Origin: a virus
Lineage: Duplodnaviria; Caudoviricetes
Virus record (IMG/VR): IMGVR_UViG_3300022909_000060
Location: 1-36,044 of that record
Length of the DNA: 36,044 bases
Direction: 5' to 3' (one strand)
Made by a program: the position numbers and the translations under genes. The notes under the pieces were generated by a model. That model was not told where the DNA came from. It searched no databases and saw only the letters and a program-made list of their open reading frames with translations. Shown piece after piece: positions 344-34,900 of the stretch (position 1 is its first letter; each line of letters starts with the position of its first letter).

Positions 344-372
344 TTGACAATTTACCCCCAACTCTGTATAAT
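344..372 (+). promoter_or_regulatory. consensus sigma70 promoter for the six-gene envelope operon
   Basis: TTGACA (344-349), 17-nt spacer, TATAAT (367-372), A-tract upstream. Confidence 0.9.
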
Positions 373-441
373 TTAAATTGAAAATGGAGGTATCCCCAAA
401 AAAATTTTTAATTAAGACGAAGCTTTCGCAACTATATAAAC

Positions 442-1029
442 ATGGACAATCTTGACTCAAGTTTAATTCGAATTCTTGGAATTGGAGTTGTTATTATTTT
501 TCTTGCGTCTTACGCAGGTGAGAGGGCTCACGGTCAAGTTATTCAAACAGAGAGCATTACTGAAAGCACCATCACTACAAACGGAAAAACGGAGACTACT
601 TTAAAATCTCCCCCTCCTTCAGCAATTTCTCCTACTATCAACACTTCAAACTCTGACTTGTGTACTTTTGGAGTAGCAGGAGCGATTCAAACACAAATTC
701 TTGGAATCTCGACAGGTACGCAGTTCACAGACGAAAACTGTGAGAGATTAAAAAATTCAAAAACTCTTTATGATATGGGTATGAAAGTAGCCGCAGTTTC
801 GCTGATGTGCCAAGACCAACGCGTCTTTGACGCAATGATGCACGCCGGAACTCCTTGCCCTTATAATGGAATGATTGGAGATGCGGCGAAAGCAGGCTGG
901 GCGAGCGATTCCGGCGAAGAGCCTTCTTCTATAGAAGAGGATGAAAGTATATTAAATGATAAAGACGTTCAAACAGGTGCTGCTACCGGCGGCATTGGTG
1001 CTTTACTCGCATTACTCTTACTCCTCTGA
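442..1029 (+). CDS. exported Cys-containing protein with C-terminal hydrophobic anchor (envelope operon ORF1)
   Basis: N-terminal signal-like segment, four Cys, amphipathic beta-hairpin candidate CTFGVAGAIQTQILGISTG..DENC, ends GGIGALLALLLLL. Confidence 0.75.
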   Translation: MDNLDSSLIRILGIGVVIIFLASYAGERAHGQVIQTESITESTITTNGKTETTLKSPPPSAISPTINTSNSDLCTFGVAGAIQTQILGISTGTQFTDENCERLKNSKTLYDMGMKVAAVSLMCQDQRVFDAMMHAGTPCPYNGMIGDAAKAGWASDSGEEPSSIEEDESILNDKDVQTGAATGGIGALLALLLLL

Positions 1030-1813
1030 AATTGTAAATGGAGCGACCCCGAACGCAGCATTGTCGGGGTATCACTGGGTAATGACTAATTTGCTTCCAC
1101 AGCAGGCAGGATTAACTGTGAACAATATATTTTACCGCTATACTACGGAAAAAGAGCGAGAGGATAGCATGATTGTGTATGTTCAGAACGAAGATACATT
1201 GAACGAAGGGCAATACATATTTCGTAGTGTAGATGACTGGACGGGGTTACCTGGCAATACAATTGTTAAAAGCGTTCCTTTGCCAGAGCTTTTAGGTTCT
1301 CGATTCGGAGATGGTTCTATAGAAGTAGAAGGCTCAGGTACAGTTTCGGATGCAACGGTAATTTACTCATACCGTTACGACCCTTGCTTCAATCCTCAGT
1401 CAGATCCATCTTGCGAAGGTTATATACCTGAGATACCGGAAATACCAGAGCCGGAAGATCCTCTTGAAGATGAGTATGTACAAGATGAATTAGATCGAAA
1501 AGCAGTAATGAGAAATGCGGAAGACGAAGAGGAAGAGCGAGAGAGCGTAGAAAAGAATGCAGAAGAAGTCGATGAAGACTTTTTAGAGGCTCGACTCGGA
1601 CTTACAAGTGTAATAACCCTTGAAACTGCAACGCTACCAGTTTCTGCACTTCCATCGACATATAACTTAACGCTTCCTGATGGTGTACTGCCGTCAGGAA
1701 AGCCGCTAAAAGATTCTGTGAATATTGCACAGAGTAATCGAAGGTTGCAGTTTGCCCAAGATAAAATGCACTTAGACTTAGTAAAGTCACAGTATAGGAG
1801 AAATACGAAATGA
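956..1813 (+). CDS. exported protein, possible tip or adhesin component (envelope operon ORF2)
   Basis: Signal peptide, beta-rich N-domain, DPCFNPQSDPSCEGY disulfide motif, PEIPEIPEPE linker, acidic helical region. Confidence 0.7.
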   Translation: MIKTFKQVLLPAALVLYSHYSYSSEIVNGATPNAALSGYHWVMTNLLPQQAGLTVNNIFYRYTTEKEREDSMIVYVQNEDTLNEGQYIFRSVDDWTGLPGNTIVKSVPLPELLGSRFGDGSIEVEGSGTVSDATVIYSYRYDPCFNPQSDPSCEGYIPEIPEIPEPEDPLEDEYVQDELDRKAVMRNAEDEEEERESVEKNAEEVDEDFLEARLGLTSVITLETATLPVSALPSTYNLTLPDGVLPSGKPLKDSVNIAQSNRRLQFAQDKMHLDLVKSQYRRNTK

Positions 1814-2304
1814 AAATGAAAACCTTTTTAGCAGCCGCTGTTTTTTCGGCATCTGTTGCTGCAGAGAACGTACCAATTAATGGAACTGTTGAAGGTCAGT
1901 GTGTTGTAATTCCAGATATTTCTGGTGTGTACGGCAACCCTTCTTCAGACAAGTTGAGCACTTCGCCAATAGATGGAGGTGTAAAGCCTTCAGTACGATT
2001 TGACGTAATTATTGCAGACTACTACAAAGCTGTCATCACTACTCCAACTCAGTTTAGTGCTGCACCCGCTTTGAACGACGTAGTAAACTGGACAGGTGAT
2101 GTACTTGTAAAAGAAGTAACAGATCCTCTCATGTCTGACTATGACACTAATAAAGTAGAATACAATGATACTACTGAGTATGACCTGACTGTTGCAGGTA
2201 GTACTTGGTTTGAAATGGATTCTACAGCAGAATATGGTTATAACAAGCCATTCCCTGCAGGACAATACACAGCAGTAGTAGAAGCGAACTGTATCGCAAA
2301 ATGA
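1810..2304 (+). CDS. fimbrial/pilin-like subunit (envelope operon ORF3)
   Basis: Signal peptide ending SVAA; mature N-terminus VPINGTVEGQC resembles the pilin I-x-G-x-V-x-x-x-C donor strand; C-terminus PAGQYTAVVEANC resembles the pilin G-x-Y/F-x-A strand; 164 aa. Confidence 0.6.
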   Translation: MKMKTFLAAAVFSASVAAENVPINGTVEGQCVVIPDISGVYGNPSSDKLSTSPIDGGVKPSVRFDVIIADYYKAVITTPTQFSAAPALNDVVNWTGDVLVKEVTDPLMSDYDTNKVEYNDTTEYDLTVAGSTWFEMDSTAEYGYNKPFPAGQYTAVVEANCIAK

Positions 2305-2678
2305 AATCTTTTGTTTTTCTCCTACTGTTTCTAGGAGTGAGTGCAGCTTCGGCTCACTCCTGGACTCCTACCTATTTTGAGTTTAGACCTTCTCATCTAG
2401 CGGGAGTGTATGTAACGGAGATGACATTATTCAACAAGCGAGAGGACGCAACGTATTATTCCGTAGAAGTACGAGATAAAGATTTTAACTCAGTTTCTTT
2501 TCGCACTAGTTCACCATTTTATGCGATAGAGTATTTAGAAAAGCAAAAGATTCGTGTATATGTTTCTCAAAAAGACTTAGATAAAGCCTTATACATTTGC
2601 TCTCGTTCCCGATTTCCAGCAGGTACAAAAGCGAGTAGTTTAGTGAGTTCTCGAATATGTTCAAAAGTACGCCCTTAA
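2301..2678 (+). CDS. single-domain PapD-like periplasmic chaperone (envelope operon ORF4)
   Basis: Signal peptide ending ASA; TPTY..MTLFN..YSVEV..PFYAI..KQKIRVY pattern like the PapD N-domain; ends RICSKVRP (cf. RIKLFYRP); Cys pair in the last strands. Confidence 0.55.
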   Translation: MKSFVFLLLFLGVSAASAHSWTPTYFEFRPSHLAGVYVTEMTLFNKREDATYYSVEVRDKDFNSVSFRTSSPFYAIEYLEKQKIRVYVSQKDLDKALYICSRSRFPAGTKASSLVSSRICSKVRP

Positions 2679-3094
2679 TATTATTATGTTTAATAAGTTT
2701 TTCTGCTTTTGCACAAAACTCCAATCTAAATTTGTCGATTCCTCAAACCCCGCAGTCATATCAATCTGATAGAGTGAGAGCAGGAGATTTGGAGTGCTCT
2801 GCAGCAATTGGGTCTTCGACAAACGTTGAGTTCGGGGTCGTAGGAATTTTAAATCAACAAGATCCTACATACTTTGCTTCGGCTACAGATCCTTATTTTA
2901 ATTATAATCCAGATTCGTTTATAAAAGATGTAGGCGTCTATGGAAAGATTACAATTCCTTTGGGAGCACCAAAGGAAAGACTAAATTGTAATACTCTTTA
3001 CCAACTAGAATTAAGAAAGAAAAGATTAGAAGTACAAAGACTTGAACAAGAATTGCAGCAGCTAAGAGCAATGCAATTTGTAGGAGATGAGTAG
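2657..3094 (+). CDS. exported protein with beta-hairpin and coiled coil, possible oligomeric outer-membrane component (envelope operon ORF5)
   Basis: Signal peptide ending AFA; two Cys flanking amphipathic strands TNVEFGVVG and DVGVYGKITIPLG; C-terminal heptads LEVQRLEQELQQL. Confidence 0.65.
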   Translation: MFKSTPLILLCLISFSAFAQNSNLNLSIPQTPQSYQSDRVRAGDLECSAAIGSSTNVEFGVVGILNQQDPTYFASATDPYFNYNPDSFIKDVGVYGKITIPLGAPKERLNCNTLYQLELRKKRLEVQRLEQELQQLRAMQFVGDE

Positions 3095-3576
3095 TGGCAA
3101 CTGAAATAGAAATCGGAGGAGTAAAATTTACTGGCGGAAAAGCTTTCGCAATCATAACTGCTCTTTCAACTGCAGCCGGTGTTGTATGGGGGGCCGCTGA
3201 ATTCTGGGGAGACTATATGGGCATGAGAGAGCGTATCGAAAGCTATGAAAGTCCAGACTTATCCCACATAGAACAGACTCTTGCAGTACAAAGTGAAGAG
3301 ATGGCCACACTACGAACAATTATGGAGACTTTAGAAATAAAAGTAGATAATACAGAAGATAGTCTTTCTGAAGATATGGACAAAGTACAAGACCTTGCTA
3401 GAAAAGTTGATGATAAAACTGCAGAGACTCAACGTGAAGTTAGAGACGATGTATATGCAATGGAACAAAAGTTGAACGATAGAATGCGAGGGCTTGATAG
3501 TGACCTGCGTACTCTTCGTAAAGATTTAGAAGAAAAGATCCAGCTCATACTGGACAATCCTTTGAATGACCAATAG
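3094..3576 (+). CDS. membrane-anchored coiled-coil protein (envelope operon ORF6)
   Basis: GTG start overlapping the previous TAG; one TM segment (AFAIITALSTAAGVVWGAA) followed by a long charged heptad region. Confidence 0.75.
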   Translation: MATEIEIGGVKFTGGKAFAIITALSTAAGVVWGAAEFWGDYMGMRERIESYESPDLSHIEQTLAVQSEEMATLRTIMETLEIKVDNTEDSLSEDMDKVQDLARKVDDKTAETQREVRDDVYAMEQKLNDRMRGLDSDLRTLRKDLEEKIQLILDNPLNDQ

Positions 3577-3672: not shown

Positions 3673-3701
3673 TTGACAAATCTGCTGAAAACCCTTATAA
3701 T
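3673..3701 (+). promoter_or_regulatory. consensus sigma70 promoter
   Basis: TTGACA-17 nt-TATAAT with upstream A7 tract. Confidence 0.9.
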
Positions 3702-3931: not shown

Positions 3932-4068
3932 ATCATCTACAAGAAGTAAAAATGACTTACTGGCAGCACCTTCGACACGCTTGGAGTATAGCATTTATTT
4001 TATTTATACACGGAATTTTTCCTCAAATATGGAAGTCAAAAGCAAGTGAAAGTATTAATAGGGTGTGA
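3928..4068 (+). CDS. small membrane protein, DUF6356-like (MNHLQEVKMTYWQHLRHAWSIAFILFIHGIFPQIWKSKASESINRV)
   Basis: HL..V..TY.QHL..A...IH..FP.....AS pattern; ATGA-coupled. Confidence 0.6.
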   Translation: MNHLQEVKMTYWQHLRHAWSIAFILFIHGIFPQIWKSKASESINRV

Positions 4069-4639
4069 ATTTAGTGGTACAGTGCGCGACTGCTTTCTCG
4101 CAATGGGACATGATGCAATTTCCTGCGATCTTCTACCAACAGAAGCTCCAGGACCTCATATCCAAGGAGACGTAGTTGAAGTTTTATACAATAATGAGTG
4201 GGACCTTGCTATTTTGCACCCTCCATGTACTTATCTTGCTTCAAGCGGTTTGCATTGGAATAACAAAATTGAAGGAAGAGCTCAGAAAACTGAAGATGCG
4301 CTCGAGTTTATTACTACTTTATGGAATGCCCCTGTAAAGAAAATGGCAATAGAAAATCCTGTCGGGTGTATAAATACTCGACTAAAGTTTATGCCAAGAC
4401 CCCAATACGTCCAGCCCTATAATTACGGAGAAGATGCCTCAAAGAAAACGGGCCTGTGGCTGAGGGGCTTGGCACCTCTTGAACCAACTGAGTATATACA
4501 CCCAAGGATGGTAAATGGAAAACCAAGATGGAGCAATCAAGGCGACACTGGTTATGATAAGTTTGGTGGTGGTCAGGGCAAAGAACGCTCTGTCACCTTT
4601 TTTGGAATCGCATCTGCGATGGCCCTGCAATGGGGATAA
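4046..4639 (+). CDS. phage-type C5 cytosine DNA methyltransferase
   Basis: KVLIGCEFSG (motif I-like), catalytic HPPC (motif IV), IENP (motif VI), C-terminal RSVTF.GIA.AMA.QWG. Confidence 0.75.
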   Translation: MKVLIGCEFSGTVRDCFLAMGHDAISCDLLPTEAPGPHIQGDVVEVLYNNEWDLAILHPPCTYLASSGLHWNNKIEGRAQKTEDALEFITTLWNAPVKKMAIENPVGCINTRLKFMPRPQYVQPYNYGEDASKKTGLWLRGLAPLEPTEYIHPRMVNGKPRWSNQGDTGYDKFGGGQGKERSVTFFGIASAMALQWG

Positions 4640-4849: not shown

Positions 4850-4979
4850 TACTGAAGTAGAGGATTTCTTAAAAAAGAATCCTAATTGTCCTAATCCAGA
4901 ACATAGTCCTAGGACTGTGGAATATTTAGTGCGTATGTATAAATACTATAAAGAGCAAAAAAATGATAGCCCATCCTAA
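4830..4979 (+). CDS. hypothetical protein, 49 aa (MPTAHLDTEV...CPNPEHSPRTVEYLVRMYKYYK...)
   Basis: Fills the gap and overlaps both neighbours; not in the track. Confidence 0.55.
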   Translation: MPTAHLDTEVEDFLKKNPNCPNPEHSPRTVEYLVRMYKYYKEQKNDSPS

Positions 4980-5562
4980 TTTTTCGCAACGTAATATAAA
5001 TTATATATTTTCTCAGCTAGAAATAGATGAGATTATTGAAAAGCATACTTTGTGGTTGCAAGATGACCCATTAGGGGAAAGGGCTTACTTAGCTTATGCG
5101 AATTTTGACGGATTAGACTTTTCAAATAAAAGCCTTTTAAATTTAGGGTTTGAAAACTCTTCGTTTGTTGGCTGTAATTTTGACGGAGTATTTACAAACC
5201 ATTGTAGTTTTAGAAATGCTAATTTTACAGGAGCTGAAGTTACAAATGCTAGGCTTGATATTTGTAATTTTTTAAACTCAGACTTTACTGATGCGAGTTT
5301 AACTGGAACTTCTATAGCAAGCTTTGGCAACAACAGAGAAATAAAAAACATAAATGTAACTAAGTATTTATTTACTTATACAGCTACTCATATAGGGCTA
5401 GATTGTATGTGGTTTGAGATAGATTGGTGGAAAAATGCAACTTTTGATGAAGTACAGGCACTATCTCCACAAGACGAAGATATGGCCCTAATGTACTCCC
5501 TACTACAAGATGTAGGGCTCCCTACTGTGGAAGTATCTCCTGCAGTGCCTTATAGGGTATAA
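4963..5562 (+). CDS. pentapeptide-repeat protein
   Basis: KH.LWL....GERAYL leader, then ANFDG/LDFSN/CNFDG/ANFTG/SDFTD/ASLTG repeats. Confidence 0.85.
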   Translation: MIAHPNFSQRNINYIFSQLEIDEIIEKHTLWLQDDPLGERAYLAYANFDGLDFSNKSLLNLGFENSSFVGCNFDGVFTNHCSFRNANFTGAEVTNARLDICNFLNSDFTDASLTGTSIASFGNNREIKNINVTKYLFTYTATHIGLDCMWFEIDWWKNATFDEVQALSPQDEDMALMYSLLQDVGLPTVEVSPAVPYRV

Positions 5563-5565
5563 TAA

Positions 5566-8500
5566 ATGGCTATTGTTACACAAATAGTTCCTACATCCGC
5601 TAATAACAACACAGGTGCCTCGCCTGAGACTCTAGGCACCACTCTAGAGCTTGGAGATACTCTTAGATTAGATGTTGAAGGGCAAGCGTCTAATTGGACA
5701 TTTTCGCAGGCGGATAGTTTTTTTAACAGTACAGATGTTGGGGGTACCCACGTCTCTAACAGTACCGAGAATGATAGCGATGATACCTATGACATTGATT
5801 GTGATGGGAGTTACCCTTCTGGCTCTCAAACTACTCTGAATGTTTTTAAATCCGCGAATAGCGTATCACCTTATTATGTTTTAACAGTTAATACGCAAAG
5901 CTTAGATCCCACTATAACTAAAGATCTTATTCATAATGGAAGTAGTATTAATGGCTTTCCTATATACTATTCTCCAAATGGAAACGTAACATTTAGTTAT
6001 ACAAATGGAGGAGCATATACTCGTTACAGAGTTATAACAACTTCAGCATCTTCATCTCCAAGTGGAACAGTTATCAATGGTAGAGGCTGTGGTAATGCAG
6101 TAGGAACTTCAGGAACTATTGATATTGAATACAAAGCTACTGGAAATGAACTGTGTAATATTGAAGGAAGCCAAGTATCTTACAAAGTCCAATATCGTCC
6201 AAGAAATCTAGCAACTACTTATCAAGATACAGGAACTACATTTACTTTAACTCATATTGTAAGTAGCCCGGGAACTATAAGTGTTTCTAATGCGGGTAAT
6301 AGTTCTCAAACAGAAACTGTCACAGTGTCCTGTGCAATTAATCCTCCTACCGATTGTATATTAGAGTTTAGCACTTCGAGTTCTTTTTCTAGTAATGTAG
6401 TTGCTGCGGATGCTAATAGAGAAGCAGATTTTTCTCAGACTAGGAATACTACTGTAACTTATTATGCCCGATTCAGAAATACTACTACAAATGCGGTAAC
6501 TTTTGGGACCTATCCTAGTGTATCACATACAGTAAACTACTTAGCATTAAACGATAATGAAATAAGTATGGCGGTACAAAGTGCCTCTATAGGCCCTTAT
6601 TTCTCTGAAAGCTACGTTTTCAGTTATACAAATGGAGGAGCTTCAGCAGAATATAGATTAGTATCAAATGATACTCCTAGTTTTGAAGTTGATTCGGCTT
6701 CGGGATCAAGTGGGTCTTGGTCAATAAGTAGTTCGGAATTGCCGCCAGTAAATACTACATGGACTTACTTTGTTCAGGGGCAGAGACTCTCCTCCCAAGG
6801 GGGAGAGCCAAATAGTTGGGCACAAACTACAATAACAGGAAGTTCTAACAATGAAATAACAGTATTTAGACAGAATTATACTCCGCCAGACACAACTTTC
6901 ACAGCATCTAGCCCTACTATTGATTGGGACGCGACATCTTTTACTACTACTCTTACAGGAGTTCAAGTAGGAGACGAAGTACGAGCAGTACTAACCTCAA
7001 ATACAGCAGTACTCTTTGAAAATTTTACGACTGTTACTTCCACTACCTTTAATTTAGTATGTAATAACTCTACAGTAGACTCTACGAATCTTCCTTATGG
7101 CACTGCCACTAGTGTCAGGATTCAAGTTAGACGTCCTGCGTCTGCAGATGGAGATGGTAATACTTCTGCTGCTACCACTTTTAACGTAACACGAAACTAC
7201 AGAGTGGGGCCTTTTACAAATGTGTTGATAGACGAGCCTTCGGGAGCTTCCGCCACAATTGGAGCTCAAGCATATGATGCTTATGACCAAGGAGATGTAG
7301 AACCTGTAAGAGTAACAGGGTCAGGAGTAATTTCTGGGGCTACTTATATTGGAAGAATTATAAGTGGTACTACAAGAGGAGGAGCCACCCAAGGAATTAT
7401 ATACAGTCAAGTTGCTTCAGGAACAGAACCTAACGCTGAAACTACTGCTGGGGGTTGTACCCTTTCACAGCTACCTACACCAGGATATACTGTAGGTGAT
7501 CAATTAACAGTTTCTGGCTCAAATATAAACGGCGGCACAGATGCCGTTGTAACTGTAGATACTGTCAACAGCTCGGGCGTTATTACTGCTGCAAGTGTAA
7601 CAGGTACAGCCTCCAACACTGATACTTTTTCTGGAGTAACAGGTAGTGTAATACAAGGTAGTGGTACCAATCCTCCTAACTTCACAGTAACTTTATCCAA
7701 TAATACTTACAGCTCTGTAGTAATTCAAACACCTAATACTTCTGCGAACTTTGCAGTAAATGATAAAATTAAAATTTTAGGAAGTCAATTTGGTGGTGTT
7801 GACGTAACAAATGATCTTATATTAAAGGTCACACAAGTAACCTTTGGTAAAATTCAGGCAGTTGTAGTTGATAGTGGCGTCGCACCTGATGTAGATCTAT
7901 TATTTACAAATGTTTCTTATACTACAGGAAGTTTAGATTCTACTGCTACTATTAATATCAGAGTGCAAGGAACAAGCTATAGTGTAGTAATAACCTCAGG
8001 AGGTGCAGGAAATACTTGTGGGTATAGAATTACTTGTATTGTTCCTACAAGTCTTGGAGGAGATGGTACCACTGAACATGAATGCCAAGACAATGCGAGC
8101 AATCAAACTGAATTTACTATAACTCGATCCGCCTATGTGCAGCCGGATACAACTACAAACCAAATGACTATAACAGGTACAGGAGTTGTAAGTGATGGTT
8201 TTCAAGAGTGGTTAATAGCAAATAATAATACAACTACAAATCCTTCGTTAGGAGTTACTGGAACAGAGACTAATCAAAAATACAGAATAAATAATGGATA
8301 TGTTCCCAACAATGCTAGTGAAGTACTTTATTATAGTTTTGGAACCGGTAACTCTTCTTTATCTGCAACAATAACAAATTCCGATATAGTAACAGGAACC
8401 GGTATTAATTATTTTTTATATACTCAAGTACCAGAAGTAGAGGACGGACAAGATGATTCTGTATGGAGTGTTGTAACTACAAATGGTAGCACTTTAGTTA

Positions 8501-10314
8501 GAGGGTTTATTGATAGAGAAGCAGCTTTAGTTTCCCCAACAATAACTTTAAGCTCTACCGCTATAAATAGTGCAGATTATAGTAAAGTTGTTCCTTACAT
8601 AAGAATTGCAGATACTGGAGCTGCACAAGATGCAGGAAATCTACAAGTAGCTTTTTCTACAACTAGCTCAACTCCCTCAAGCTGGATTACAAGAGATACA
8701 GGAGGTCTTAATAAAGATGGATACTACTATTCTATGGATGCATCGTATAGTAGAACGTCTCAAACGGTTTATATGGGGGTACGAAGAATAAGCGCAGTAA
8801 CTGGAGCTACAACAACTCCAAGCTATGGAAACGTTAGTATTACCTCAAATACTAACTTACTTGATCCAGGAGGAGCGAACTTAAGCGTATATCTTAATAA
8901 CAATAATAATTCTAGCTTTGCAGGATATGTAGGAGATGGTAATAATGAAATTCGTTTATTTAACGGGGATACCGCTACTGAAGTAGTTACTCTAGAAGGC
9001 CTTAGTAATCCAACTGCAGATGTTATTGATGTAAATGACGATTCGCCAAGTTCCTCTTTTTTCTTTACAAACACAACATTTCAAAGTCAGTATGGAATAG
9101 ATATTACTAGTGGTTCAACAGCAGGATCCCCTGTATTAACAGTAGGAGATGAGGTTGGAAATCAATTTTTACCAATTGGAGATACTTCAGATACCATTAA
9201 CTTAATTACTTCTGAACTTCCTGCCGTTGGGAATAGGGTTGACTATGAAGTTTGGAGACGACAGCTTGTTACTAATGGAGGAAGCGGCACAAAACAATAC
9301 CCTAATAATGCAGCATCAGAATCAGAATTTTTTGCACGTCGTTTTGACTTGGCAGATGATACTATTACAGTAACGGGAGTTCGTCAAACTTTAGCAAATA
9401 ATCACTCTACAGATTTAGTTTTAACTATAACAGACGGAAACTCTTCAACTCAGTATCAACTCTATAGTCAAGGTGCAGTATATGATACTAGAGTAGGTAA
9501 CGGAACACTTACAGCAACTAATCCGGGAGAACTGCCAACTGCAGGAAATACTCGAAGTTATAATATTCAGTATCGACAAGACGGTACAGGCGATACTTAT
9601 CAAAATACATCAGGTACCGGCACAAGTTTTACTCTTGGCCGTCTTGCTGCAATGGATTTGGGAACTTTAAGTAACCCTGTTTCCGTAGAAGCAACAACTT
9701 CTAGTGCAGTAATAACACTTTCCGGAGCCGTAGGAAATATAACGGCCTTGCTAACTAAAAATTCTGGAGGCGGTACAGTTCGACTTAGTAAAAATGGACA
9801 AACTTTTGCAAATAGCACTGCGTCAGGAACTTCTATTACAGTGGTAGATGCAGACACTTTACAAATTGTAGCAGAGACACCCTCTAATTATAGTAATACA
9901 ACACAATCAACTTTAACTCTTACTCAGGACAGCGTTACAATTTTTTCAGATACATTTTCTTTTACTACTGAGAGCAGCCCAGGAGGAAGTGCCGGAGGCG
10001 GGGGTGGAACTGGTGATTATGGATTAGAAATAAGAGATTCTTCTGGTAATGTTATAATTACAAATTCTGATAGAGTAGGAGATTTTTGCTATGCTACTAC
10101 AGTAAGTGTGGCCAGCGGAGCATCTACGGGAGTCTCGACGACTCAATCAATCGGAGGAAATGTAGTAATAATTGAAAATAACTTAAATCCCAACAATGAG
10201 GACGACCGAGTTTACGCAACTTTAGAAAACAACGGTAAGCAAGTACGAATTAATATGCTTGGGGTAACGGCAAGCACAAATTTAACATTTAATGTTTTAG
10301 TGTTTAGTGTTTAG
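5566..10314 (+). CDS. large modular tail fibre / receptor-binding-like protein, 1582 aa
   Basis: Thr/Ser/Gly/Asn-rich beta composition, recurring ELPxxGNxxxY modules, C-terminal GDYGLEIRDSSG motif, followed by a fibre chaperone. Confidence 0.7.
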   Translation: MAIVTQIVPTSANNNTGASPETLGTTLELGDTLRLDVEGQASNWTFSQADSFFNSTDVGGTHVSNSTENDSDDTYDIDCDGSYPSGSQTTLNVFKSANSVSPYYVLTVNTQSLDPTITKDLIHNGSSINGFPIYYSPNGNVTFSYTNGGAYTRYRVITTSASSSPSGTVINGRGCGNAVGTSGTIDIEYKATGNELCNIEGSQVSYKVQYRPRNLATTYQDTGTTFTLTHIVSSPGTISVSNAGNSSQTETVTVSCAINPPTDCILEFSTSSSFSSNVVAADANREADFSQTRNTTVTYYARFRNTTTNAVTFGTYPSVSHTVNYLALNDNEISMAVQSASIGPYFSESYVFSYTNGGASAEYRLVSNDTPSFEVDSASGSSGSWSISSSELPPVNTTWTYFVQGQRLSSQGGEPNSWAQTTITGSSNNEITVFRQNYTPPDTTFTASSPTIDWDATSFTTTLTGVQVGDEVRAVLTSNTAVLFENFTTVTSTTFNLVCNNSTVDSTNLPYGTATSVRIQVRRPASADGDGNTSAATTFNVTRNYRVGPFTNVLIDEPSGASATIGAQAYDAYDQGDVEPVRVTGSGVISGATYIGRIISGTTRGGATQGIIYSQVASGTEPNAETTAGGCTLSQLPTPGYTVGDQLTVSGSNINGGTDAVVTVDTVNSSGVITAASVTGTASNTDTFSGVTGSVIQGSGTNPPNFTVTLSNNTYSSVVIQTPNTSANFAVNDKIKILGSQFGGVDVTNDLILKVTQVTFGKIQAVVVDSGVAPDVDLLFTNVSYTTGSLDSTATINIRVQGTSYSVVITSGGAGNTCGYRITCIVPTSLGGDGTTEHECQDNASNQTEFTITRSAYVQPDTTTNQMTITGTGVVSDGFQEWLIANNNTTTNPSLGVTGTETNQKYRINNGYVPNNASEVLYYSFGTGNSSLSATITNSDIVTGTGINYFLYTQVPEVEDGQDDSVWSVVTTNGSTLVRGFIDREAALVSPTITLSSTAINSADYSKVVPYIRIADTGAAQDAGNLQVAFSTTSSTPSSWITRDTGGLNKDGYYYSMDASYSRTSQTVYMGVRRISAVTGATTTPSYGNVSITSNTNLLDPGGANLSVYLNNNNNSSFAGYVGDGNNEIRLFNGDTATEVVTLEGLSNPTADVIDVNDDSPSSSFFFTNTTFQSQYGIDITSGSTAGSPVLTVGDEVGNQFLPIGDTSDTINLITSELPAVGNRVDYEVWRRQLVTNGGSGTKQYPNNAASESEFFARRFDLADDTITVTGVRQTLANNHSTDLVLTITDGNSSTQYQLYSQGAVYDTRVGNGTLTATNPGELPTAGNTRSYNIQYRQDGTGDTYQNTSGTGTSFTLGRLAAMDLGTLSNPVSVEATTSSAVITLSGAVGNITALLTKNSGGGTVRLSKNGQTFANSTASGTSITVVDADTLQIVAETPSNYSNTTQSTLTLTQDSVTIFSDTFSFTTESSPGGSAGGGGGTGDYGLEIRDSSGNVIITNSDRVGDFCYATTVSVASGASTGVSTTQSIGGNVVIIENNLNPNNEDDRVYATLENNGKQVRINMLGVTASTNLTFNVLVFSV
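5995..6641 (+). repeat. 20-nt exact direct repeat within the fibre gene (5995-6014 and 6622-6641)
   Basis: AGTTATACAAATGGAGGAGC occurs twice, in frame, 627 nt apart (SYTNGGA). Confidence 0.85.
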
Positions 10315-13221: not shown

Positions 13222-13345
13222 AGGCGGATATAAGTGGGGTAAGTCTGGAAAGGTTTACAAAACTCGTAAAGCAGCTTTAAAGCAAGCCAGAGCAATTTAT
13301 GCTTCTGGATATGGAAAAAAGCGTGGCCGTAAAAAGAAAAGGTAG
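13202..13345 (+). CDS. 47-aa basic protein (MPVRKVKGGYKWGKSGKVY...KQARAIYASGY...)
   Basis: GTG start; overlaps both neighbours; missed by the track. Confidence 0.65.
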   Translation: MPVRKVKGGYKWGKSGKVYKTRKAALKQARAIYASGYGKKRGRKKKR

Positions 13346-13628
13346 AAAGAAGGATCCTCGGTTAGCACGTGCTAAGGTAAAGGGGTATAACAAACCAAAA
13401 CGTACTCCAGGCCACCCGAAGAAGTCCCACATCGTCGTAGCAAAGGTAGGTGATAAAGTCAAAACGATTCGATTTGGGCAGCAAGGCGCAAAAACAGCGG
13501 GTAAGCCAAAGAAAGGGGAAAGCACTGCAATGAAGAAAAAGCGTGCGTCTTTTAAAGCTCGTCATCGCAGAAACATTGCAAAGGGCAAAATGAGCGCAGC
13601 TTATTGGGCAGATAAGGTGAAGTGGTGA
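13323..13628 (+). CDS. small basic protein (IRFGQQG...SFKARH...SAAYWA.K.KW)
   Basis: Track ORF 13299-13628; start moved to GTG 13323 to match the local overlap pattern. Confidence 0.75.
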   Translation: MAVKRKGRKKDPRLARAKVKGYNKPKRTPGHPKKSHIVVAKVGDKVKTIRFGQQGAKTAGKPKKGESTAMKKKRASFKARHRRNIAKGKMSAAYWADKVKW

Positions 13629-14398
13629 ACAAAACTTATACAATAAGATCTGAAGATATTTTTAGTCCTATACAGGTAGTAACACTTGCCGATAAAAATG
13701 GAAACTTAATATCTAGTTTTGGCACAGCATCTAACATTACTATTGCTGCCGGAAATGTAGAAGGTTACTCTCATATAAATAAGTTTGGATATCGAAGTAC
13801 AATTCCAAATAGTTTTCAAACAATTTGGGATGGTACTACAGACTATACTTATAGATCCGCAGCAGTAGTTTCTGTAATTTCTGACACTCCTCTTTCTGAT
13901 GACGGCGGAACTGTAGAAGTACAAGGGCTAGATGAAAATTATGTTCCTGCAACAGAAACATTAACAATTGGAGGTTCTGCATCTAGTACTCAATTTGTTC
14001 GGGTATTTCGAGCCTTAATGCTTACGGCAAATACTGGTACTACGAATGTAGACGATATACGAGTACAGAACGGTAGTGATGATGTAGCAATTATTAAAGC
14101 AGGAGCAGGCCAAACTCTTATGTGTGTTTACACAATTCCTGCAGGCAAAACCGGTTATTTACTTAAAATAAACGGATCGATAGATGCAAATAATGATGCT
14201 CTTTTTAGACTTTATGCTAGATCTTTTGGAGGAGCATTTAATGTAAAAGGACAGTTTGGAGTATTTGCTTCTGGGTTTAATTATGACTATCCTGTACCTT
14301 TAGAATTTGGCGAAAAGACTGATATAGAAGTCAAAGCTCTTTCACAGAATAATGTCGGTGGCGGTGCCATATTTGATCTTATTCTGGTAGACAATTAA
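13622..14398 (+). CDS. hypothetical beta-rich protein, possibly virion structural
   Basis: 258 aa, INKFGY..TIW..V.GLD.NY pattern, no signal peptide. Confidence 0.6.
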   Translation: MVNKTYTIRSEDIFSPIQVVTLADKNGNLISSFGTASNITIAAGNVEGYSHINKFGYRSTIPNSFQTIWDGTTDYTYRSAAVVSVISDTPLSDDGGTVEVQGLDENYVPATETLTIGGSASSTQFVRVFRALMLTANTGTTNVDDIRVQNGSDDVAIIKAGAGQTLMCVYTIPAGKTGYLLKINGSIDANNDALFRLYARSFGGAFNVKGQFGVFASGFNYDYPVPLEFGEKTDIEVKALSQNNVGGGAIFDLILVDN

Positions 14399-14406
14399 TA
14401 TATCGT

Positions 14407-14733
14407 ATGGAAGAAGAAATGAAAGAAAAGGGGTTTCATCCAGCAGATACAAATGGAGATGGTAAAGTATCTCCCGAAGAGCATAAAATGTATATGGAGT
14501 TTAAGCGTAAAGAGCTAGAAGATGCAGATGCAATGCGAGATGCTCAACGTAATATGACTTGGTTTGCTTTATTCGGAATGTTATTGTACCCAGCTTTGGT
14601 TTTAGGAGCAGATTTTATAAATTTAGACAAGTCAGCAGATATACTAGGAGATATGGCACCGACCTACTTTGTAGCGGTTGCAGGCTTGGTAGCAGCGTTC
14701 TTCGGCGCACAGGCGTACCAAAAAGGAAAATAA
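14407..14733 (+). CDS. holin-like two-TM protein with an N-terminal EF-hand-like loop
   Basis: DTNGDGKVSPEE loop, two TM helices, basic C-terminus, upstream of spanin-like genes. Confidence 0.6.
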   Translation: MEEEMKEKGFHPADTNGDGKVSPEEHKMYMEFKRKELEDADAMRDAQRNMTWFALFGMLLYPALVLGADFINLDKSADILGDMAPTYFVAVAGLVAAFFGAQAYQKGK

Positions 14734-18981: not shown

Positions 18982-19287
18982 ATGGCAGTTAGACAAAAAC
19001 AGCTAGTTTTGGACATTGCATATAAGCACTTCAAAGAATTTGAACTGCCACTCGACATTGAGTATAAGTCTTACATGAATATCGTTGGGCCTAAAGAAGC
19101 TCTTCACGCTATTTCAGTTAAGCGCAGCTTTAAAGCATGGAAGTATTTAATTCACGCGTTAAAAGTCGCTCATCCAGATTTATTGGAGCCGCCTAAGCCC
19201 GCACCAACCCCTGCACCAAAGGCAGTCAAGCCTAGTCCTTTGAGCAAGCCTGCCCCTGCAGAAGAAATGGATAGTGACGATGAATAA
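18982..19287 (+). CDS. hypothetical protein with Pro-rich tail
   Basis: ORF between portal and protease. Confidence 0.65.
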   Translation: MAVRQKQLVLDIAYKHFKEFELPLDIEYKSYMNIVGPKEALHAISVKRSFKAWKYLIHALKVAHPDLLEPPKPAPTPAPKAVKPSPLSKPAPAEEMDSDDE

Positions 19288-21304
19288 GATTTTTAATCTA
19301 ACTTCTACGTTCAAGTCTTTAGATATAGATGACGATGGGGGCGTACATATTTGTGGTATGGCTAGTACCTCTGATTTTGATCGTGCAGGCGATACTATTG
19401 ATGCAACTGCGTGGACAAAAGGTGGTTTAGCCAATTTTGAAAAGAATCCTATTATTCTTTTTAATCATGACTATAACCACCCAATTGGTAGAGCAACTGG
19501 TGTCAAGGTCACTGAAAACGGCCTTGAGCTAAAAGCAAAAATTTCAAAAAGTGCTGTAGTACCTTCTGGTGCTGTAGCGGACCTTGTTAAAGACGGTGTC
19601 CTTGGAGCCTTTTCTGTCGGTTTCCGAGTCAAGGATGCTGATTATCTTAGTGAAACCGACGGATTAAAGATTAAGGATGCTGAATTATTCGAGGTATCAG
19701 TTGTATCTGTACCTTGTAATCAGGCAGCAACTTTTTCATTGGCTAAGTCTTTTGACTCAATAGATGAGTACGAAGATTTCAAAAAACAATTTAAAAACTG
19801 TGTGGATCTAGCCGGTCAGTCTCTGGCTAAAACTGAAGATTCAGAAGTAGCTAGTGACACACCGGAAAGGGACTACAAAGTCCAAAAGGAGATCAAAATG
19901 TCGGAAGAGAACAAAACTCCCGAAATCGACCTGGAAGCATTCGCGAAGCGCGTAGCAGATGAGACTGCTGCAAAGATCGCAATGAAGCAGGCTGAAGAAA
20001 AAGCTGCTGCAGAGAAAGCTGCTGCAGAAGCTCAAGAGAAAGCTGCTGCAGAAGCAGAAGCAAAAGCTGCTCAAGAAGAAGAAGTAAAGTCAGCTATCAA
20101 AGTTGGCGTTGAGTCAGGCGCTGAGCGCTTGGTTGCTGACGTTGAAGCTAAGCTGGCTGAAAAAGATGCTTCTATTGAAGAAGTACTCGCTAAGTACAAG
20201 GCTGACTTGGAAGAGAAGAACGAAGAGCTTACCAAAATGCGTGAGTCTAAGCGCGTATTTGCTGACCGTGCAGAAAAGGGCGACCTTTCTAAGTGGGGCA
20301 AAGACTTTATGTATGGCCACCTTCTCGGCGTAATGACTGGCAAGGGCTGGGATACTGACTATTCACGTGGTATTATGGAAAAGGCCGGTATCAACTATGC
20401 AGCTAACGCTGCTGATATTGCACAAGAAGTTTCTACTCGTATCGAGAAAGAAATTATGCTTGAGCTGAAGCTTGCACAAGCATTCCGTGAGCTTACTATC
20501 AATTCTCAGACTCAGGTACTGCCGATTCAAACTGATGCAGGTCCTGCAGCTTGGGGTTCAAACACTGATACAGCAGGTAACTTGGAGAACCGTCCAGAAG
20601 TTACTAACGCTCAGTACAATGCTAAGCAAGTAATCCTGAAAGCTACTCGATTGATTTCGACCACTTTCATGGACAACAACATTGATGAAGAAGTTCTTGT
20701 TAACTTGATGCCAATGCTTGTTGAGTCTGTTGCACGTGCTCACGCTCGCGCTGTAGACAATGCTATCATTAACGGTACTTCTGGTGGTGCTGAAGGCTTT
20801 AACGGTCTTGAGGCTCTTGCTGGTACTAACCTGTTTGCAACTGATGTTACTGCTGCCGGTGTTGGTGCTGTTACTGCATCTGACTTCTTGGACGCACGTA
20901 AGCTGATGGGTAAGTATGGCATGATGCCTGAAGACTTGGTATACGTTGTATCGCAGAAGCGTTACTACGACCTGATTGCTGATGCTGGCTTTGCTGACAT
21001 CACTGATGTAGGTTCAGACGTTGCTACCAAGATCACTGGTTCAGTTGGTGCTATCTACGGTACTCCTGTAGTAGTATCTGACCAACTCGAAGCAGAAGCT
21101 GCAAGTGCCTCTATGGGCTACGCTGTTAACGTTCGAAACCACGTAATTCCTCGTCTCCGCGGTGTATCTGTAGAGCAAGATTACGAAGTACTAAACCAGC
21201 GTCGAGTAATCGTTGCTAGCCAGTCTCTTGGCTTCAACCAGCTCGTTGCTAACAACGGTACTACTGACGTATCTGTTGTTAAGATTGTCCAAGCGGCATC
21301 TTAA
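19280..21304 (+). CDS. prohead protease fused in-frame to the HK97-fold major capsid protein
   Basis: Protease motifs DRAGD, ILFNHD..PIG, FSVGF, EVSVVSVPCN; then Ala/Glu/Lys scaffolding domain and capsid fold; no stop between them; start may be GTG 19274. Confidence 0.92.
   Translation: MNKIFNLTSTFKSLDIDDDGGVHICGMASTSDFDRAGDTIDATAWTKGGLANFEKNPIILFNHDYNHPIGRATGVKVTENGLELKAKISKSAVVPSGAVADLVKDGVLGAFSVGFRVKDADYLSETDGLKIKDAELFEVSVVSVPCNQAATFSLAKSFDSIDEYEDFKKQFKNCVDLAGQSLAKTEDSEVASDTPERDYKVQKEIKMSEENKTPEIDLEAFAKRVADETAAKIAMKQAEEKAAAEKAAAEAQEKAAAEAEAKAAQEEEVKSAIKVGVESGAERLVADVEAKLAEKDASIEEVLAKYKADLEEKNEELTKMRESKRVFADRAEKGDLSKWGKDFMYGHLLGVMTGKGWDTDYSRGIMEKAGINYAANAADIAQEVSTRIEKEIMLELKLAQAFRELTINSQTQVLPIQTDAGPAAWGSNTDTAGNLENRPEVTNAQYNAKQVILKATRLISTTFMDNNIDEEVLVNLMPMLVESVARAHARAVDNAIINGTSGGAEGFNGLEALAGTNLFATDVTAAGVGAVTASDFLDARKLMGKYGMMPEDLVYVVSQKRYYDLIADAGFADITDVGSDVATKITGSVGAIYGTPVVVSDQLEAEAASASMGYAVNVRNHVIPRLRGVSVEQDYEVLNQRRVIVASQSLGFNQLVANNGTTDVSVVKIVQAAS
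19898..21304 (+). CDS. major capsid protein from an internal in-frame start, 468 aa
   Basis: AAGGAG-6 nt-ATG at 19898, in frame with the protease. Confidence 0.8.
   Translation: MSEENKTPEIDLEAFAKRVADETAAKIAMKQAEEKAAAEKAAAEAQEKAAAEAEAKAAQEEEVKSAIKVGVESGAERLVADVEAKLAEKDASIEEVLAKYKADLEEKNEELTKMRESKRVFADRAEKGDLSKWGKDFMYGHLLGVMTGKGWDTDYSRGIMEKAGINYAANAADIAQEVSTRIEKEIMLELKLAQAFRELTINSQTQVLPIQTDAGPAAWGSNTDTAGNLENRPEVTNAQYNAKQVILKATRLISTTFMDNNIDEEVLVNLMPMLVESVARAHARAVDNAIINGTSGGAEGFNGLEALAGTNLFATDVTAAGVGAVTASDFLDARKLMGKYGMMPEDLVYVVSQKRYYDLIADAGFADITDVGSDVATKITGSVGAIYGTPVVVSDQLEAEAASASMGYAVNVRNHVIPRLRGVSVEQDYEVLNQRRVIVASQSLGFNQLVANNGTTDVSVVKIVQAAS
19990..20075 (+). repeat. coding EKAAAE-type repeats in the capsid scaffolding domain
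   Basis: AAAGCTGCTGCAGA occurs three times, plus a partial copy. Confidence 0.7.
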
Positions 21305-31912: not shown

Positions 31913-31933
31913 AGCTAAAATAGAGAATTATTT

Positions 31934-34900
31934 ATGACTACACCAGTAAAAAGTAACCAGCAACATATTTTTATTCATGATGCTATCTGTGAAGGACCAG
32001 TAGAAGGACTTCTTTACGGAGAATCTTCTGTATATTTAAATAATAATCGTGCTCGCCCTTTAAACCCCGATGCTCCGTATGCTCCCTTAAATGGTAAAAT
32101 TGAATTCACAAGTACTTCAGATACTACAGGATCCTTATCCTCTAATATACCAGGTAAATATGTAGGTACTCCTAATAACACGAATTATCTAGTAATTAGA
32201 GGAGGAAGTATTGAAAAAAGTGGAACTCCTGTAAATAATAGTGGAGTTTTTACTATAACAGGAGATGCTAGTTTTACAAGTGCTTATACTACTGAAGATA
32301 ATCTAAATAAAGTTATTGCGCTTGTTTCAACTGATGAAAGTAATCAAGTATACTTACTAGGAGAAGGAAAATTAGACGGAACTAAATTGACGTTCACTCC
32401 TTTAAATCCTCAGTATGATACTGCAATTATTGTTCAAAATCAAGATTACAAAGTTCAATTACTAGAAACTTTAGAAATTTCAAGCATCGCTGTAGACAGT
32501 ATTACAGTTACAAGTGGTCCATCTTTAGGAGCTAATGGAAGTAGTCCATATACTTATTATATTTCTGGCTCAATACAACCAGATGCGGAAAATCCTGACG
32601 CAGATGCTCCTTCAGTACAAAAAGTAAAAGTACAGTTTAGAAACGGCTCGACCATACAAGATCCAATTGTAGAACTAAACGGTGTAGGAGGAGGCTCTTC
32701 TTATACGGGCAATCCTCAAGATGCTACTCCCCAGCAATTAAAACAGCTTAATGTCGCTGCTTGGAATGCTTCACAGTCAGGTACTCCTGAAAATAAAGTC
32801 CCAAAGTCGGACACTCCCGCAGGAGACCCATTCCCAAGGTACGAGGGAGGTAATTATCCTGAAGGAGAGAGTATTGCTACTGAAGGAGCCATATCTCCCA
32901 CAATTATTTCTGCAACGGATTTTGGAGTAGCTGAATCTAGCATTCCTTTACTTGATGAAGTAAGAGTAAGTATTAGTTATAACTCTTTGTATGCAATAAG
33001 TAAAAAAGACGGAGAAGAAACTACAAATACTGCTATTTATTTATTTCAAATTCGAAAAAAAGCACCTGGCGCCAGTACGTTTAATGAATGGCAAAATGCT
33101 TTTAGTGACGGGGGAGACACAACTGTTGGGCAAATAAATCACACAGCAAAAAATAAAAGTGCGATATCTTTTGAGCATTTTATTGACTTAGAGTTTATTA
33201 AGCCTTTTGAGGATTTTGAAATACGAATTACTCGACTTACTCGACATAAGGGACGAGCGTGCTTATCCCAAGGACAAGATGCAGGAGACGATCAAGAGCT
33301 TGAAGCGGGTGATTCTACATCATTTATAAGTAATATTACAGCTATAAATAGAGATAAATTTTCGTATCCTCATACTGCTCATGTAGGAATTTTTTTAGAC
33401 TCTCGTGAGTATAGTTCTGTTCCTAAAAGAAGTTATGAGATGCGAGGTATGCGGGTGCACGTACCTAATGGATATATACCCAGAGACTATTCGAGTACAG
33501 GAGATGCTACTTATCCTGACTTTTGGGATGGCACTATGTCTCAATCTCGATTTTATACAAATAACCCTGCCTGGGTATTTTACGATATAATTGTTAATGA
33601 CCGTTTTGGTGCAGGAGAATGGATAAAAGAAGACGATGTAGACCTTTATGCTCTGTATAGAATTTCTAAATATTGTGATGAGTTAGTAGACGATGGAAAA
33701 GGAGGTACTGAGCCTCGCTTTACAGCAAACTTATACTTATCGAAAGCTACTGACGTATACAAAGTTTTAAAAGATATGTCTACCATTTTTACATCCTTAA
33801 TATATTGGATGGATGGAAAGATGACTACAATTCTCGATGCCCCAGGAGACCCAGTTTATAACTTTTCTAGAGCCAATGTACTTGATGGAGCATTTAGTTA
33901 CGAAACTACTGGTCAAAAAACAAAGACAAACCAAGTTGTTGTTACTTGGAATGACCCGGAATTAAACTATGAACAGAGCACTCTTGTAATAGAGGATAGA
34001 GCCTCTATAGTAAGAGAAGGGCGCATAATAAAAGAGAACGCCTTTGCCTTTGGTTGTACTTCAGAAGGCCAAGCACAAAGATATGGAAAATGGAAGCTTT
34101 TTACCGCTCAAGGCCAAACTGAGATTATATCTTTTAAAACAGCATTAGAGGGTGCTTTTATTCGTCCTGGAGATATCATACAGGTACAAGATACTGCTCG
34201 ATATGGAGCAAAATTTAGTGGTAGAATTGCAAGCGCAACGAGTACCAATGTTACTTTAGACAGACCGGTTACTCTAGGTTCCTCAACCTACGAATTGGCT
34301 GTAATTATAACTGAACCTGCTGCTTTTTATGTCGGAGAAGGTACTGTAAATATAAGAAATGCGGCTGATGATGCTAATGAAGAAACTTATACCAGAGGAG
34401 AACGAATAACTCGTGCTTGGGTAGATGATAATAATAATGGTACTCGAACATTACAAACTGTAGATACTGAAGCTAAAGCATCTAATGCGTGGACTAAAGA
34501 AACAGGCGGAGAATTTTTACCCACTACTTGGAAAGAGGATTCATATGTCGAAAGCAAGTCTATTAGTAATAATCAGTCAGATGTTACTAGTCTTACCGCA
34601 AGTTTTAGTACGACTCCAACCGCTAATTCAATCTGGGTAATCACAGAAACAGAGAGTGGAACTCCTACTGCTGGCTCTGCAGACCTTTATAAAGTACTCA
34701 GTATAGCTCAAGACGATAAAAATATATATAGTATTAGTGCAGTAGAACATACAAATGACAAATATGCCTACGTAGACAATCCAGATTCAATATTAGACTT
34801 ACCAAATGATGTCTTTCCTACAGAGCCAGAATTTGCTGTTGCTCCAACACAAATTCGTGTATTGCAAACTTCCGATGCCTCCCGTCCCGATGAAGAACTT

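Follow-up and report, generated by a model that had tools for sequence, protein, structure and literature searches.

A phage envelope cassette with a separable pilin-chaperone triad: a candidate usher-less fibre system

Results

Gene content of the cassette

The viral record IMGVR_UViG_3300022909_000060 (Caudoviricetes) is a 36-kb stretch of 36,044 nucleotides, about 37% complete, which is referred to below as the window. On its + strand it carries a cassette of six open reading frames (ORFs) that overlap or abut: ORF1 (442..1029), ORF2 (956..1813), ORF3 (1810..2304), ORF4 (2301..2678), ORF5 (2657..3094) and ORF6 (3094..3576). ORF3 encodes a predicted pilin, ORF4 a predicted single-domain chaperone of the PapD/FimC type and ORF5 a candidate usher substitute or anchor; we refer to these three genes as the triad. 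A perfect sigma70-type promoter (TTGACA-17-TATAAT, 344..372, + strand) precedes ORF1 and the next one (3673..3701, + strand) marks the end of the unit, in agreement with the original prediction of one promoter driving six coupled genes. Perfect consensus promoters stand at four sites in the window, all on the + strand (344, 3673, 11506 and 17373), so the operon promoter is not special but of the phage's usual kind. All four are of the T5-like strong type served by the host polymerase.

The products had been assigned to the host envelope from signal peptides and paired cysteines in five of them and a membrane anchor with a coiled coil in the sixth, and these features were borne out. ORF1 to ORF5 have signal-peptide-like starts, as called by eye from alignments; a crude hydropathy scan (19-residue window >1.6) marks ORF1, ORF5 and ORF6 only. 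Invariant cysteines in the alignments are C74, C100, C123 and C139 in ORF1, C144 and C153 in ORF2, C100 and C120 in ORF4, and C47 and C111 in ORF5. For ORF3, one alignment gives C161 as invariant and C31 as at least 90% conserved, and in another both are invariant. ORF6 contains no cysteine and combines an N-terminal hydrophobic segment with a coiled coil. Scans against Pfam, NCBIfam and PHROG named none of the six ORFs, the coiled-coil matches of ORF6 being non-specific. With no named PHROG match among them, the earlier remark that the cassette lies near the position of llp in T5 found no support.

The cassette divides into two modules

Loci were fetched from IMG/VR with ORF3, ORF5 and ORF1 as queries; the three sets overlap and consist of closest matches, with a near-copy of the window among them. 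The full set of six occurred in one conserved order in 41/59 (ORF3), 69/78 (ORF5) and 59/78 (ORF1) of these loci, which lie on marine viral contigs, demonstrating that the genes co-occur elsewhere. As far as the coordinates show, the genes missing from the remaining loci fall past the contig end. The flanks of the cassette vary from one phage backbone to another, and in some loci additional genes stand ahead of ORF6.

Direct tblastn searches of 50,697 annotated phage records with ORF3 and ORF2 gave no match, and cultured-phage homologues were reached through ORF5, which matched 28 records including cultured Vibrio phages. In phage pVp-1, the products of pVp-1_0077 and pVp-1_0078 match ORF3 and ORF4 (hhalign 94.7% and 94.0%, respectively), the next gene matches ORF5, and ORF1, ORF2 and ORF6 are absent. 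A pilin of the pVp-1 type occurs in 179 of the 50,697 records. Pilin, chaperone and ORF5 genes were adjacent in all six Vibrio phages inspected (pVp-1, Thalassa, K450, 252E42.2, D71 and vB_VhaS-tm); at each of these loci two large proteins lacking signal peptides precede the triad and a small, Thr-rich, lipoprotein-like ORF follows it. The large phages 2.275.O, D479 and 1.081.O carry chaperone-like, ORF5-like and pilin-like genes in a different order. The ORF5 match in 2.275.O is independent (E 7e-10), with weak matches for the genes on either side of it; the profile matches for D479 and 1.081.O are circular.

Conversely, ORF1 homologues were detected in 15 phage records, and in all five that were inspected (HTVC115P, Mosig, HTVC202P, CRP-810 and ctXG6705) ORF3 to ORF5 were absent from the stretch fetched, with an ORF6 homologue present in three of the five. 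Cultured phages that carry ORF1 without the triad include pelagiphages and roseophages. The cassette thus consists of two modules, A (ORF1, ORF2 and ORF6) and B (the triad), and the claim that its six genes form one inseparable system did not survive.

Several neighbours of the triad in the Vibrio phages were recorded separately. The large proteins ahead of it belong to phrog_22875/32509 and phrog_10818 (L075, 5715-10821; L236, 1531-4890; L234, 879-4893) and are possibly head or tail fibres; in vB_VhaS-tm the block of large proteins plus triad has the capsid gene on one side and the head-tail adaptor on the other. The lipoprotein-like ORF with a Thr-rich tail (phrog_16916; L075, 12008-12166; L236, 5996-6208) lies directly after ORF5, is unannotated in vB_VhaS-tm and could be a fourth component of the module in these phages.

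The triad is also a chromosomal operon in Alphaproteobacteria

Among 401 genomes of the class of the Rhodobacteraceae bin G002 (Alphaproteobacteria), ORF5 was found in G535 (E 2e-13), where it lies on a chromosome contig of 1.5 Mb. Pilin-like and chaperone-like genes precede it; one flank of this triad carries a CorA transporter gene and the other what we take to be an oxidoreductase-like gene. ORF5 was present in 5 of 151 genomes of the G535 family and in 13 of 301 of its order, one match being weak and without the neighbour genes. At all 14 distinct strong alphaproteobacterial ORF5 loci the order is pilin, chaperone, ORF5, profiles from the first five loci having found the other nine. The bacterial and phage families match each other by profile (pilin 97.1%, chaperone 93.3%), and housekeeping genes flank the triad in the five genomes viewed. 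In one of these, G869 (L256, 55-2799), a 915-amino-acid YadA-head protein is encoded about 4 kb upstream of the triad; it does not occur in the other four regions viewed.

Within the family of G002 (301 genomes) ORF5 was found in G002 alone, and its two contigs with the full six-gene cassette are probably binned phage. A Genome Taxonomy Database (GTDB) scan with ORF3 returned just seven bin contigs of 1.7-28 kb. The class to which the Pseudomonadales bin G001 belongs was searched twice (400 genomes) without finding ORF5.

No usher was found beside the triad. The original prediction had noted that none was visible in the window, and indeed no usher was found among the 34 ORFs scanned with Pfam in this incomplete (~37%) record. 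Homologous loci likewise lack an adjacent usher: none was found among 26 long ORFs scanned with Pfam (24 from cassette loci and two from Thalassa; cassette-locus ORFs of at least 550 amino acids number 34, those outside the 24 being duplicates or scanned separately). A search with the usher family PF00577, positive in the E. coli control, found no match in 9 of the 14 triad-bearing bacterial genomes, completeness being given for none of the genomes. The proteins of about 800 amino acids next to the triad in Vibrio phages do not qualify as ushers, as they lack a signal peptide and have no usher match in Pfam.

ORF3 and ORF4 are predicted to adopt pilin-like and chaperone-like folds

In the AlphaFold2 model of ORF3 (predicted local distance difference test, pLDDT, 92) about six main strands form a beta-sandwich, and residues 1-12 belong to no sheet. 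This N-terminal extension (mature residues 1-12, V-x-I-x-G-x-V) has a conserved alternating hydrophobic pattern, an invariant G133-x-Y135 stands at the start of the last strand, and cysteines lie at both ends of the fold. The G-x-Y motif is similar to the Gly/Tyr that FGL subunits conserve in strand F (PMC4169507). The top Foldseek rows for ORF3 are chaperone-usher pilins, namely CfaB (E 5e-4), FimG/F, CS17, the PapG pilin domain and CsuA/B, at template modelling (TM) scores of 0.40-0.47. Together with the free N-terminal strand of the model, these matches support the earlier description of ORF3 as pilin-like. ORF3 is likely, though not certainly, a pilin-like protein with an incomplete immunoglobulin (Ig) fold, the open groove being read from the strand list of the model. 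The call is held at this strength because Foldseek ranks pilins first and a second structure comparison, VIA-align, ranks other Ig domains first (see Discussion); further grounds for it are the N-terminal extension with its alternating pattern, the invariant G-x-Y and the neighbouring chaperone. Six distant full-length homologues on short contigs (P0322, P0332, P0336, P0342, P0345 and P0349) bridge the pilin families of the window, the Vibrio phages and the bacteria.

For ORF4 the two structure comparisons agree on the fold of a chaperone N-domain, as had been suggested from its resemblance to the N-terminal Ig domain of PapD. The predicted mature protein of 107 amino acids (model pLDDT 93) is a single domain corresponding to the PapD N-domain alone, with its invariant cysteine pair placed in the last two strands. 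Foldseek gave 22 matches at E≤0.001 (1e-4 to 1e-3; TM 0.51-0.68), and all rows listed at that cut-off are chaperones of chaperone-usher systems (FaeE, PapD, DraB, SfaE and Caf1M). VIA-align matched SafB (Z 9.9; root mean square deviation 3.0 over 97 aligned residues), FimC (9.7), YadV (9.6), CfaA (9.3), PapD (8.8) and CsuC (8.3). The second Ig domain of these chaperones and a C-terminal membrane helix are absent from ORF4, and aligned homologues are likewise of single-domain size in a search that covered 62-231 amino acids. Profile searches of PDB sequences with ORF3 or ORF4 gave nothing significant.

ORF5 is the constant partner of the pilin-chaperone pair

ORF5 is an exported-type protein of 126 amino acids and belongs to no known family, with no Pfam match. 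Alternating hydrophobic and polar predicted beta-strands surround a loop of variable length and are followed by a cysteine and a coiled coil (phrog_37374). The low-confidence Atlas model has as its nearest structures outside the family TolC-family proteins (TM 0.48) and YadA-anchor clusters (TM≤0.39), both below the bar for naming a family, and the pVp-1 homologue shows a sub-threshold match to OEP (E 0.065). A complex prediction with three ORF5 copies scored 0.21 (mark 0.42), which weighs neither for nor against an oligomer; the true oligomer may exceed three. Relatives of ORF5 number at least 6,526 at 90% clustering, and about 920 IMG/VR stretches are estimated to match it. The original prediction had made ORF1 and ORF5 small channel subunits. 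A paralogous relation between the two is unsupported (hhalign 8% and 3%, covering the signal peptides only), and the channel role is doubtful for ORF1. For ORF5 a channel or platform role gains indirect support, as it is the sole one of the other four genes kept with pilin and chaperone. It accompanies this pair wherever the triad was inspected, non-lysing cells among them, and on this ground ORF5 is given the putative role of outer-membrane platform or pore, likely as an usher substitute or anchor.

Module A is probably a separate anchoring or display unit

ORF1 has a signal-peptide-like start, a Thr-rich stretch and a Cys-bounded predicted beta-hairpin plus helices (phrog_20531). Its C-terminus, overlooked in the first reading, is a conserved Gly-rich hydrophobic tail and likely a membrane anchor. 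ORF2 comprises an exported-type N-terminal domain, a C-x8-C motif, an acidic linker and about 40 conserved C-terminal residues; its C-terminal half is acidic and by eye not pilin-like, and ORF2 is missing from the triad-only loci. The pelagiphage protein at this position has a different N-terminal domain and matches the C-terminus only (hhalign 21%), so that the equivalence is mostly positional. In ORF6 an N-terminal membrane segment is combined with a coiled coil that ends in a conserved NPL motif; a homologue occurs in pelagiphage HTVC115P. Tip adhesins of chaperone-usher pili consist of a lectin domain and a pilin domain. The earlier roles of ORF2 as tip adhesin and ORF1 as pilus channel are doubtful, since ORF3 to ORF5 and ORF1, ORF2 and ORF6 occur apart. 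Although its function is more open than that of the triad, the preferred interpretation of module A is that of a separate anchor displaying a variable domain: ORF1 would be an anchored hairpin protein, ORF2 a variable exported domain on an acidic stalk and ORF6 an inner-membrane coiled-coil protein. In phages of the window type the triad would then sit inserted within an independent envelope module.

The deposited names of two CRP-810 proteins (Roseobacter phage; L070, 4833-6641), 'OmpA family protein' and 'lysozyme', look wrong, as these proteins match the ORF1 and ORF6 profiles. In ctXG6705 (L074, 4893-6640) the ORF1 and ORF6 homologues are unannotated in the record.

Phage backbone and neighbouring genes

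The head, connector and tail genes of the window are T5-like and its tail-tip genes of the lambda type; the nearest cultured relatives of its head proteins are T5-like phages (35-40% identity). Scans with PHROG and Pfam identified two Rz-like spanins. Salt-marsh libraries contain sequence nearly identical to the window; contigs from salt-marsh metatranscriptomes cover the operon and its flanks alike, which without a silent control stretch is not proof of transcription, and their depth does not allow genes to be ranked.

A single ORF of 676 amino acids (19274-21304) encodes a fusion of prohead protease and major capsid protein, which are separate genes in the nearest cultured T5-like phages. 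A Thr/Ser/Gly-rich ORF of 1582 amino acids (5566-10314) has no Pfam or PHROG match and is likely the receptor-binding fibre; a 234-amino-acid ORF and then a tail-fibre assembly chaperone follow downstream. Between this gene and the cassette lie a DNA methyltransferase-like ORF (phrog_757, 4046-4639) and a pentapeptide-repeat ORF (4963-5562). The + strand listing shows no ORF of at least 70 amino acids past the lambda-I-like tail gene (31915-36044); open-ended frames fall outside that listing, and the region is possibly a long tail-tip gene continuing past the end of the record. Many unrelated phage loci carry, next to the cassette, small basic Lys/Arg-rich ORFs as well as an EF-hand-like small membrane protein (13299-14733 in the window; families F6, F8, F17 and F23).

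Discussion

We think it probable, without treating it as settled, that ORF3 to ORF5 constitute an usher-less donor-strand fibre system at the host envelope in which ORF5 takes the place of the usher. The idea of a distinct fibre-assembly system stands as regards the ORF3 and ORF4 folds, gene co-occurrence and the lack of an adjacent usher, but not as regards the unity of the six genes and the roles of ORF1 and ORF2. In the proposed mechanism the three proteins would be exported by Sec and oxidized in the periplasm, as their signal-peptide-like starts and invariant cysteine pairs suggest. The last strand of ORF4, whose fold is predicted with high confidence, would then fill the open groove of ORF3 in the manner of PapD. 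The free N-terminal strand of ORF3 suggests that subunits could next be joined head to tail by donor-strand exchange. In the least certain step, ORF5 would oligomerize in the outer membrane through its amphipathic beta-strands, its coiled coil facing the periplasm, and serve as assembly site, anchor or pore instead of an usher of about 800 amino acids.

A number of observations weigh against this interpretation. The similarity of ORF3 to pilins is distant, as the TM scores given above show. In VIA-align the first places go to Ig domains of staphylococcal MSCRAMMs and of integrins (Z≤7.5), with no chaperone-usher pilin among the 50 rows shown. Fim/Pap pilins carry an A-B disulfide, unlike ORF3, whose cysteine pair would link the first strand to the last and might thereby shut the groove. 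For ORF4, VIA-align puts an Ig domain of a glycosidase at the top (Z 10.1, level with SafB) and gives MSP domains similar scores. The Atlas model of ORF5 is poor (predicted TM 0.32), and with two to four strands per chain a large oligomer would be needed to pass a folded pilin. In three jumbo or T4-like Vibrio phages the third gene fails the pilin profiles (4.5%) and the chaperone match is weak (5.8%). An unlinked usher-like gene is present in 5 of the 14 triad-bearing bacterial genomes, two of them over the Pfam cut-off. Finally, the large signal-peptide-less proteins (phrog_10818) that the triad follows in the six Vibrio loci hint at a link to the virion.

The last point bears directly on an alternative that we consider unlikely, namely that a fibre or a pilin-chaperone product is built in the periplasm without a pore and released by lysis as a virion decoration, free decoy or matrix, with ORF5 as nucleator or terminator. 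A lytic phage needs no pore. In all six Vibrio loci the triad follows a virion-associated-looking protein of about 770-860 amino acids (phrog_10818 in the three scanned), the position of the triad in vB_VhaS-tm is next to capsid and adaptor genes, and in pVp-1 and Thalassa holin and endolysin genes come after it. However, neither a phrog_10818 match nor a large neighbour stands at this place in the window or the jumbo phages, and 14 bacteria, which do not lyse for release, have the triad as a chromosomal operon.

Less probable still is a non-polymeric trans-envelope complex of all six proteins (ORF6 in the inner membrane, ORF1 and ORF5 in the outer) that aids or times disruption of the outer membrane, the Ig proteins being accessory. 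ORF6 has the layout of an i-spanin, with membrane anchor and coiled coil, and module A homologues are often near terminase or lysis-type genes. Of 119 distinct loci, 56 have a T4 late-promoter motif upstream of ORF1, a raw count without shuffle control that also speaks for the fibre system favoured above; a sigma70-like motif occurs there in 13 of the 119. Set against this, the window already encodes its pair of spanins, and ORF3 to ORF5 are found without ORF1, ORF2 and ORF6 and on bacterial chromosomes. The explanation could hold for module A alone.

We give little weight to the triad being an orphan pilin-chaperone set that depends on a borrowed export machine, such as a host usher, or disturbs host pili as a receptor-blocking decoy. 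The unlinked usher-like genes in five of the bacterial genomes would suit such borrowing, but the other nine genomes gave no usher match, ORF4 is without the second domain that canonical chaperones have and ORF5 is retained at every triad locus inspected. Least probable of all is that ORF3 and ORF4 are generic periplasmic Ig domains which form a small adhesin or receptor-masking complex with ORF5 and no polymer: VIA-align does not single out pilins for ORF3 and MSP/ASH domains are also PapD-like in fold, yet adjacent pilin-like and chaperone-like folds with an alternating extension kept at about 20% family identity are unlikely to arise by chance.

Returning to the usher-less fibre system, we tentatively propose a more specific form, which we regard as possible: an oligomer of the approximately 125-residue ORF5 would act as an outer-membrane pore replacing the usher, in a minimal pathway exchanged between alphaproteobacteria and several families of lytic marine phages that puts pili on infected cells. 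For the fibre system in its general form, the most likely benefit to a lytic phage would be that infected cells stick to particles or to nearby hosts at a late stage of infection; a shield against superinfection comes second.

The triad has much in common with chaperone-usher pili (alternate CFA/I CfaABCE; the FGL systems Caf1, Saf, Afa-Dr and AAF; classical Fim/Pap; archaic Csu): a pilin-like Ig fold with N-terminal extension and last-strand G-x-Y in ORF3, a PapD N-domain fold in ORF4, signal-peptide-like starts and an operon. The cysteine pair in the last two strands of ORF4 also recalls the F1-G1 disulfide of FGL chaperones. In contrast to these pili, there is no usher in or beside the operon, the chaperone has one domain rather than two, cysteines stand at both ends of the pilin fold, the third partner of 126 amino acids belongs to no known family, and lytic phages carry the genes. 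As two defining features, the usher and the two-domain chaperone, are absent, we do not class the triad as a member.

The Pam pilus of candidate phyla radiation (CPR) bacteria offers a precedent, combining donor-strand pilins and PapD/FimC-like chaperones without a canonical usher (PMC13278184). As described there, Pam pilins have two domains and Pam chaperones are two-domain and membrane-anchored, whereas ORF3 and ORF4 are single-domain proteins, and the system is reported as CPR-specific, in hosts without an outer membrane. The word 'phage' is absent from the main text of that paper.

Like TolC/OEP channels, YadA anchors and curli CsgG, which are oligomeric barrels of small protomers, ORF5 joins predicted amphipathic beta-strands to a long helix, but it is far smaller, and all matches lie below the bar for naming a family. 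We know of no link between these channels and donor-strand pili. T5 Llp, Cor and spanins share with the cassette that they are phage-encoded envelope proteins near tail or lysis genes; they show no sequence match to it, and the window's spanins are separate genes. Superinfection-exclusion proteins and spanins are one- or two-gene systems without a pilin fold.

The literature searched, limited to open papers, yielded no description of the triad or cassette. As far as that literature goes the system is undescribed, and there is a fair chance that it represents a new pathway. What is new here is the split of ORF3 to ORF5 from ORF1, ORF2 and ORF6, and the presence of the triad in cultured Vibrio phages and 14 alphaproteobacterial genomes. 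The homologues in these phages and on bacterial chromosomes make the idea of an usher-less fibre directly testable. The textbook view, to our knowledge, is that donor-strand pili of two-membrane bacteria require an usher; if our interpretation is correct, a three-gene set of about 1.3 kb with half a chaperone and a very small partner would provide a new route of export or assembly, and no kit of this kind would be smaller. Pili built by phages on infected cells would then be a new way for lytic phages to alter the adhesion and aggregation of marine cells.

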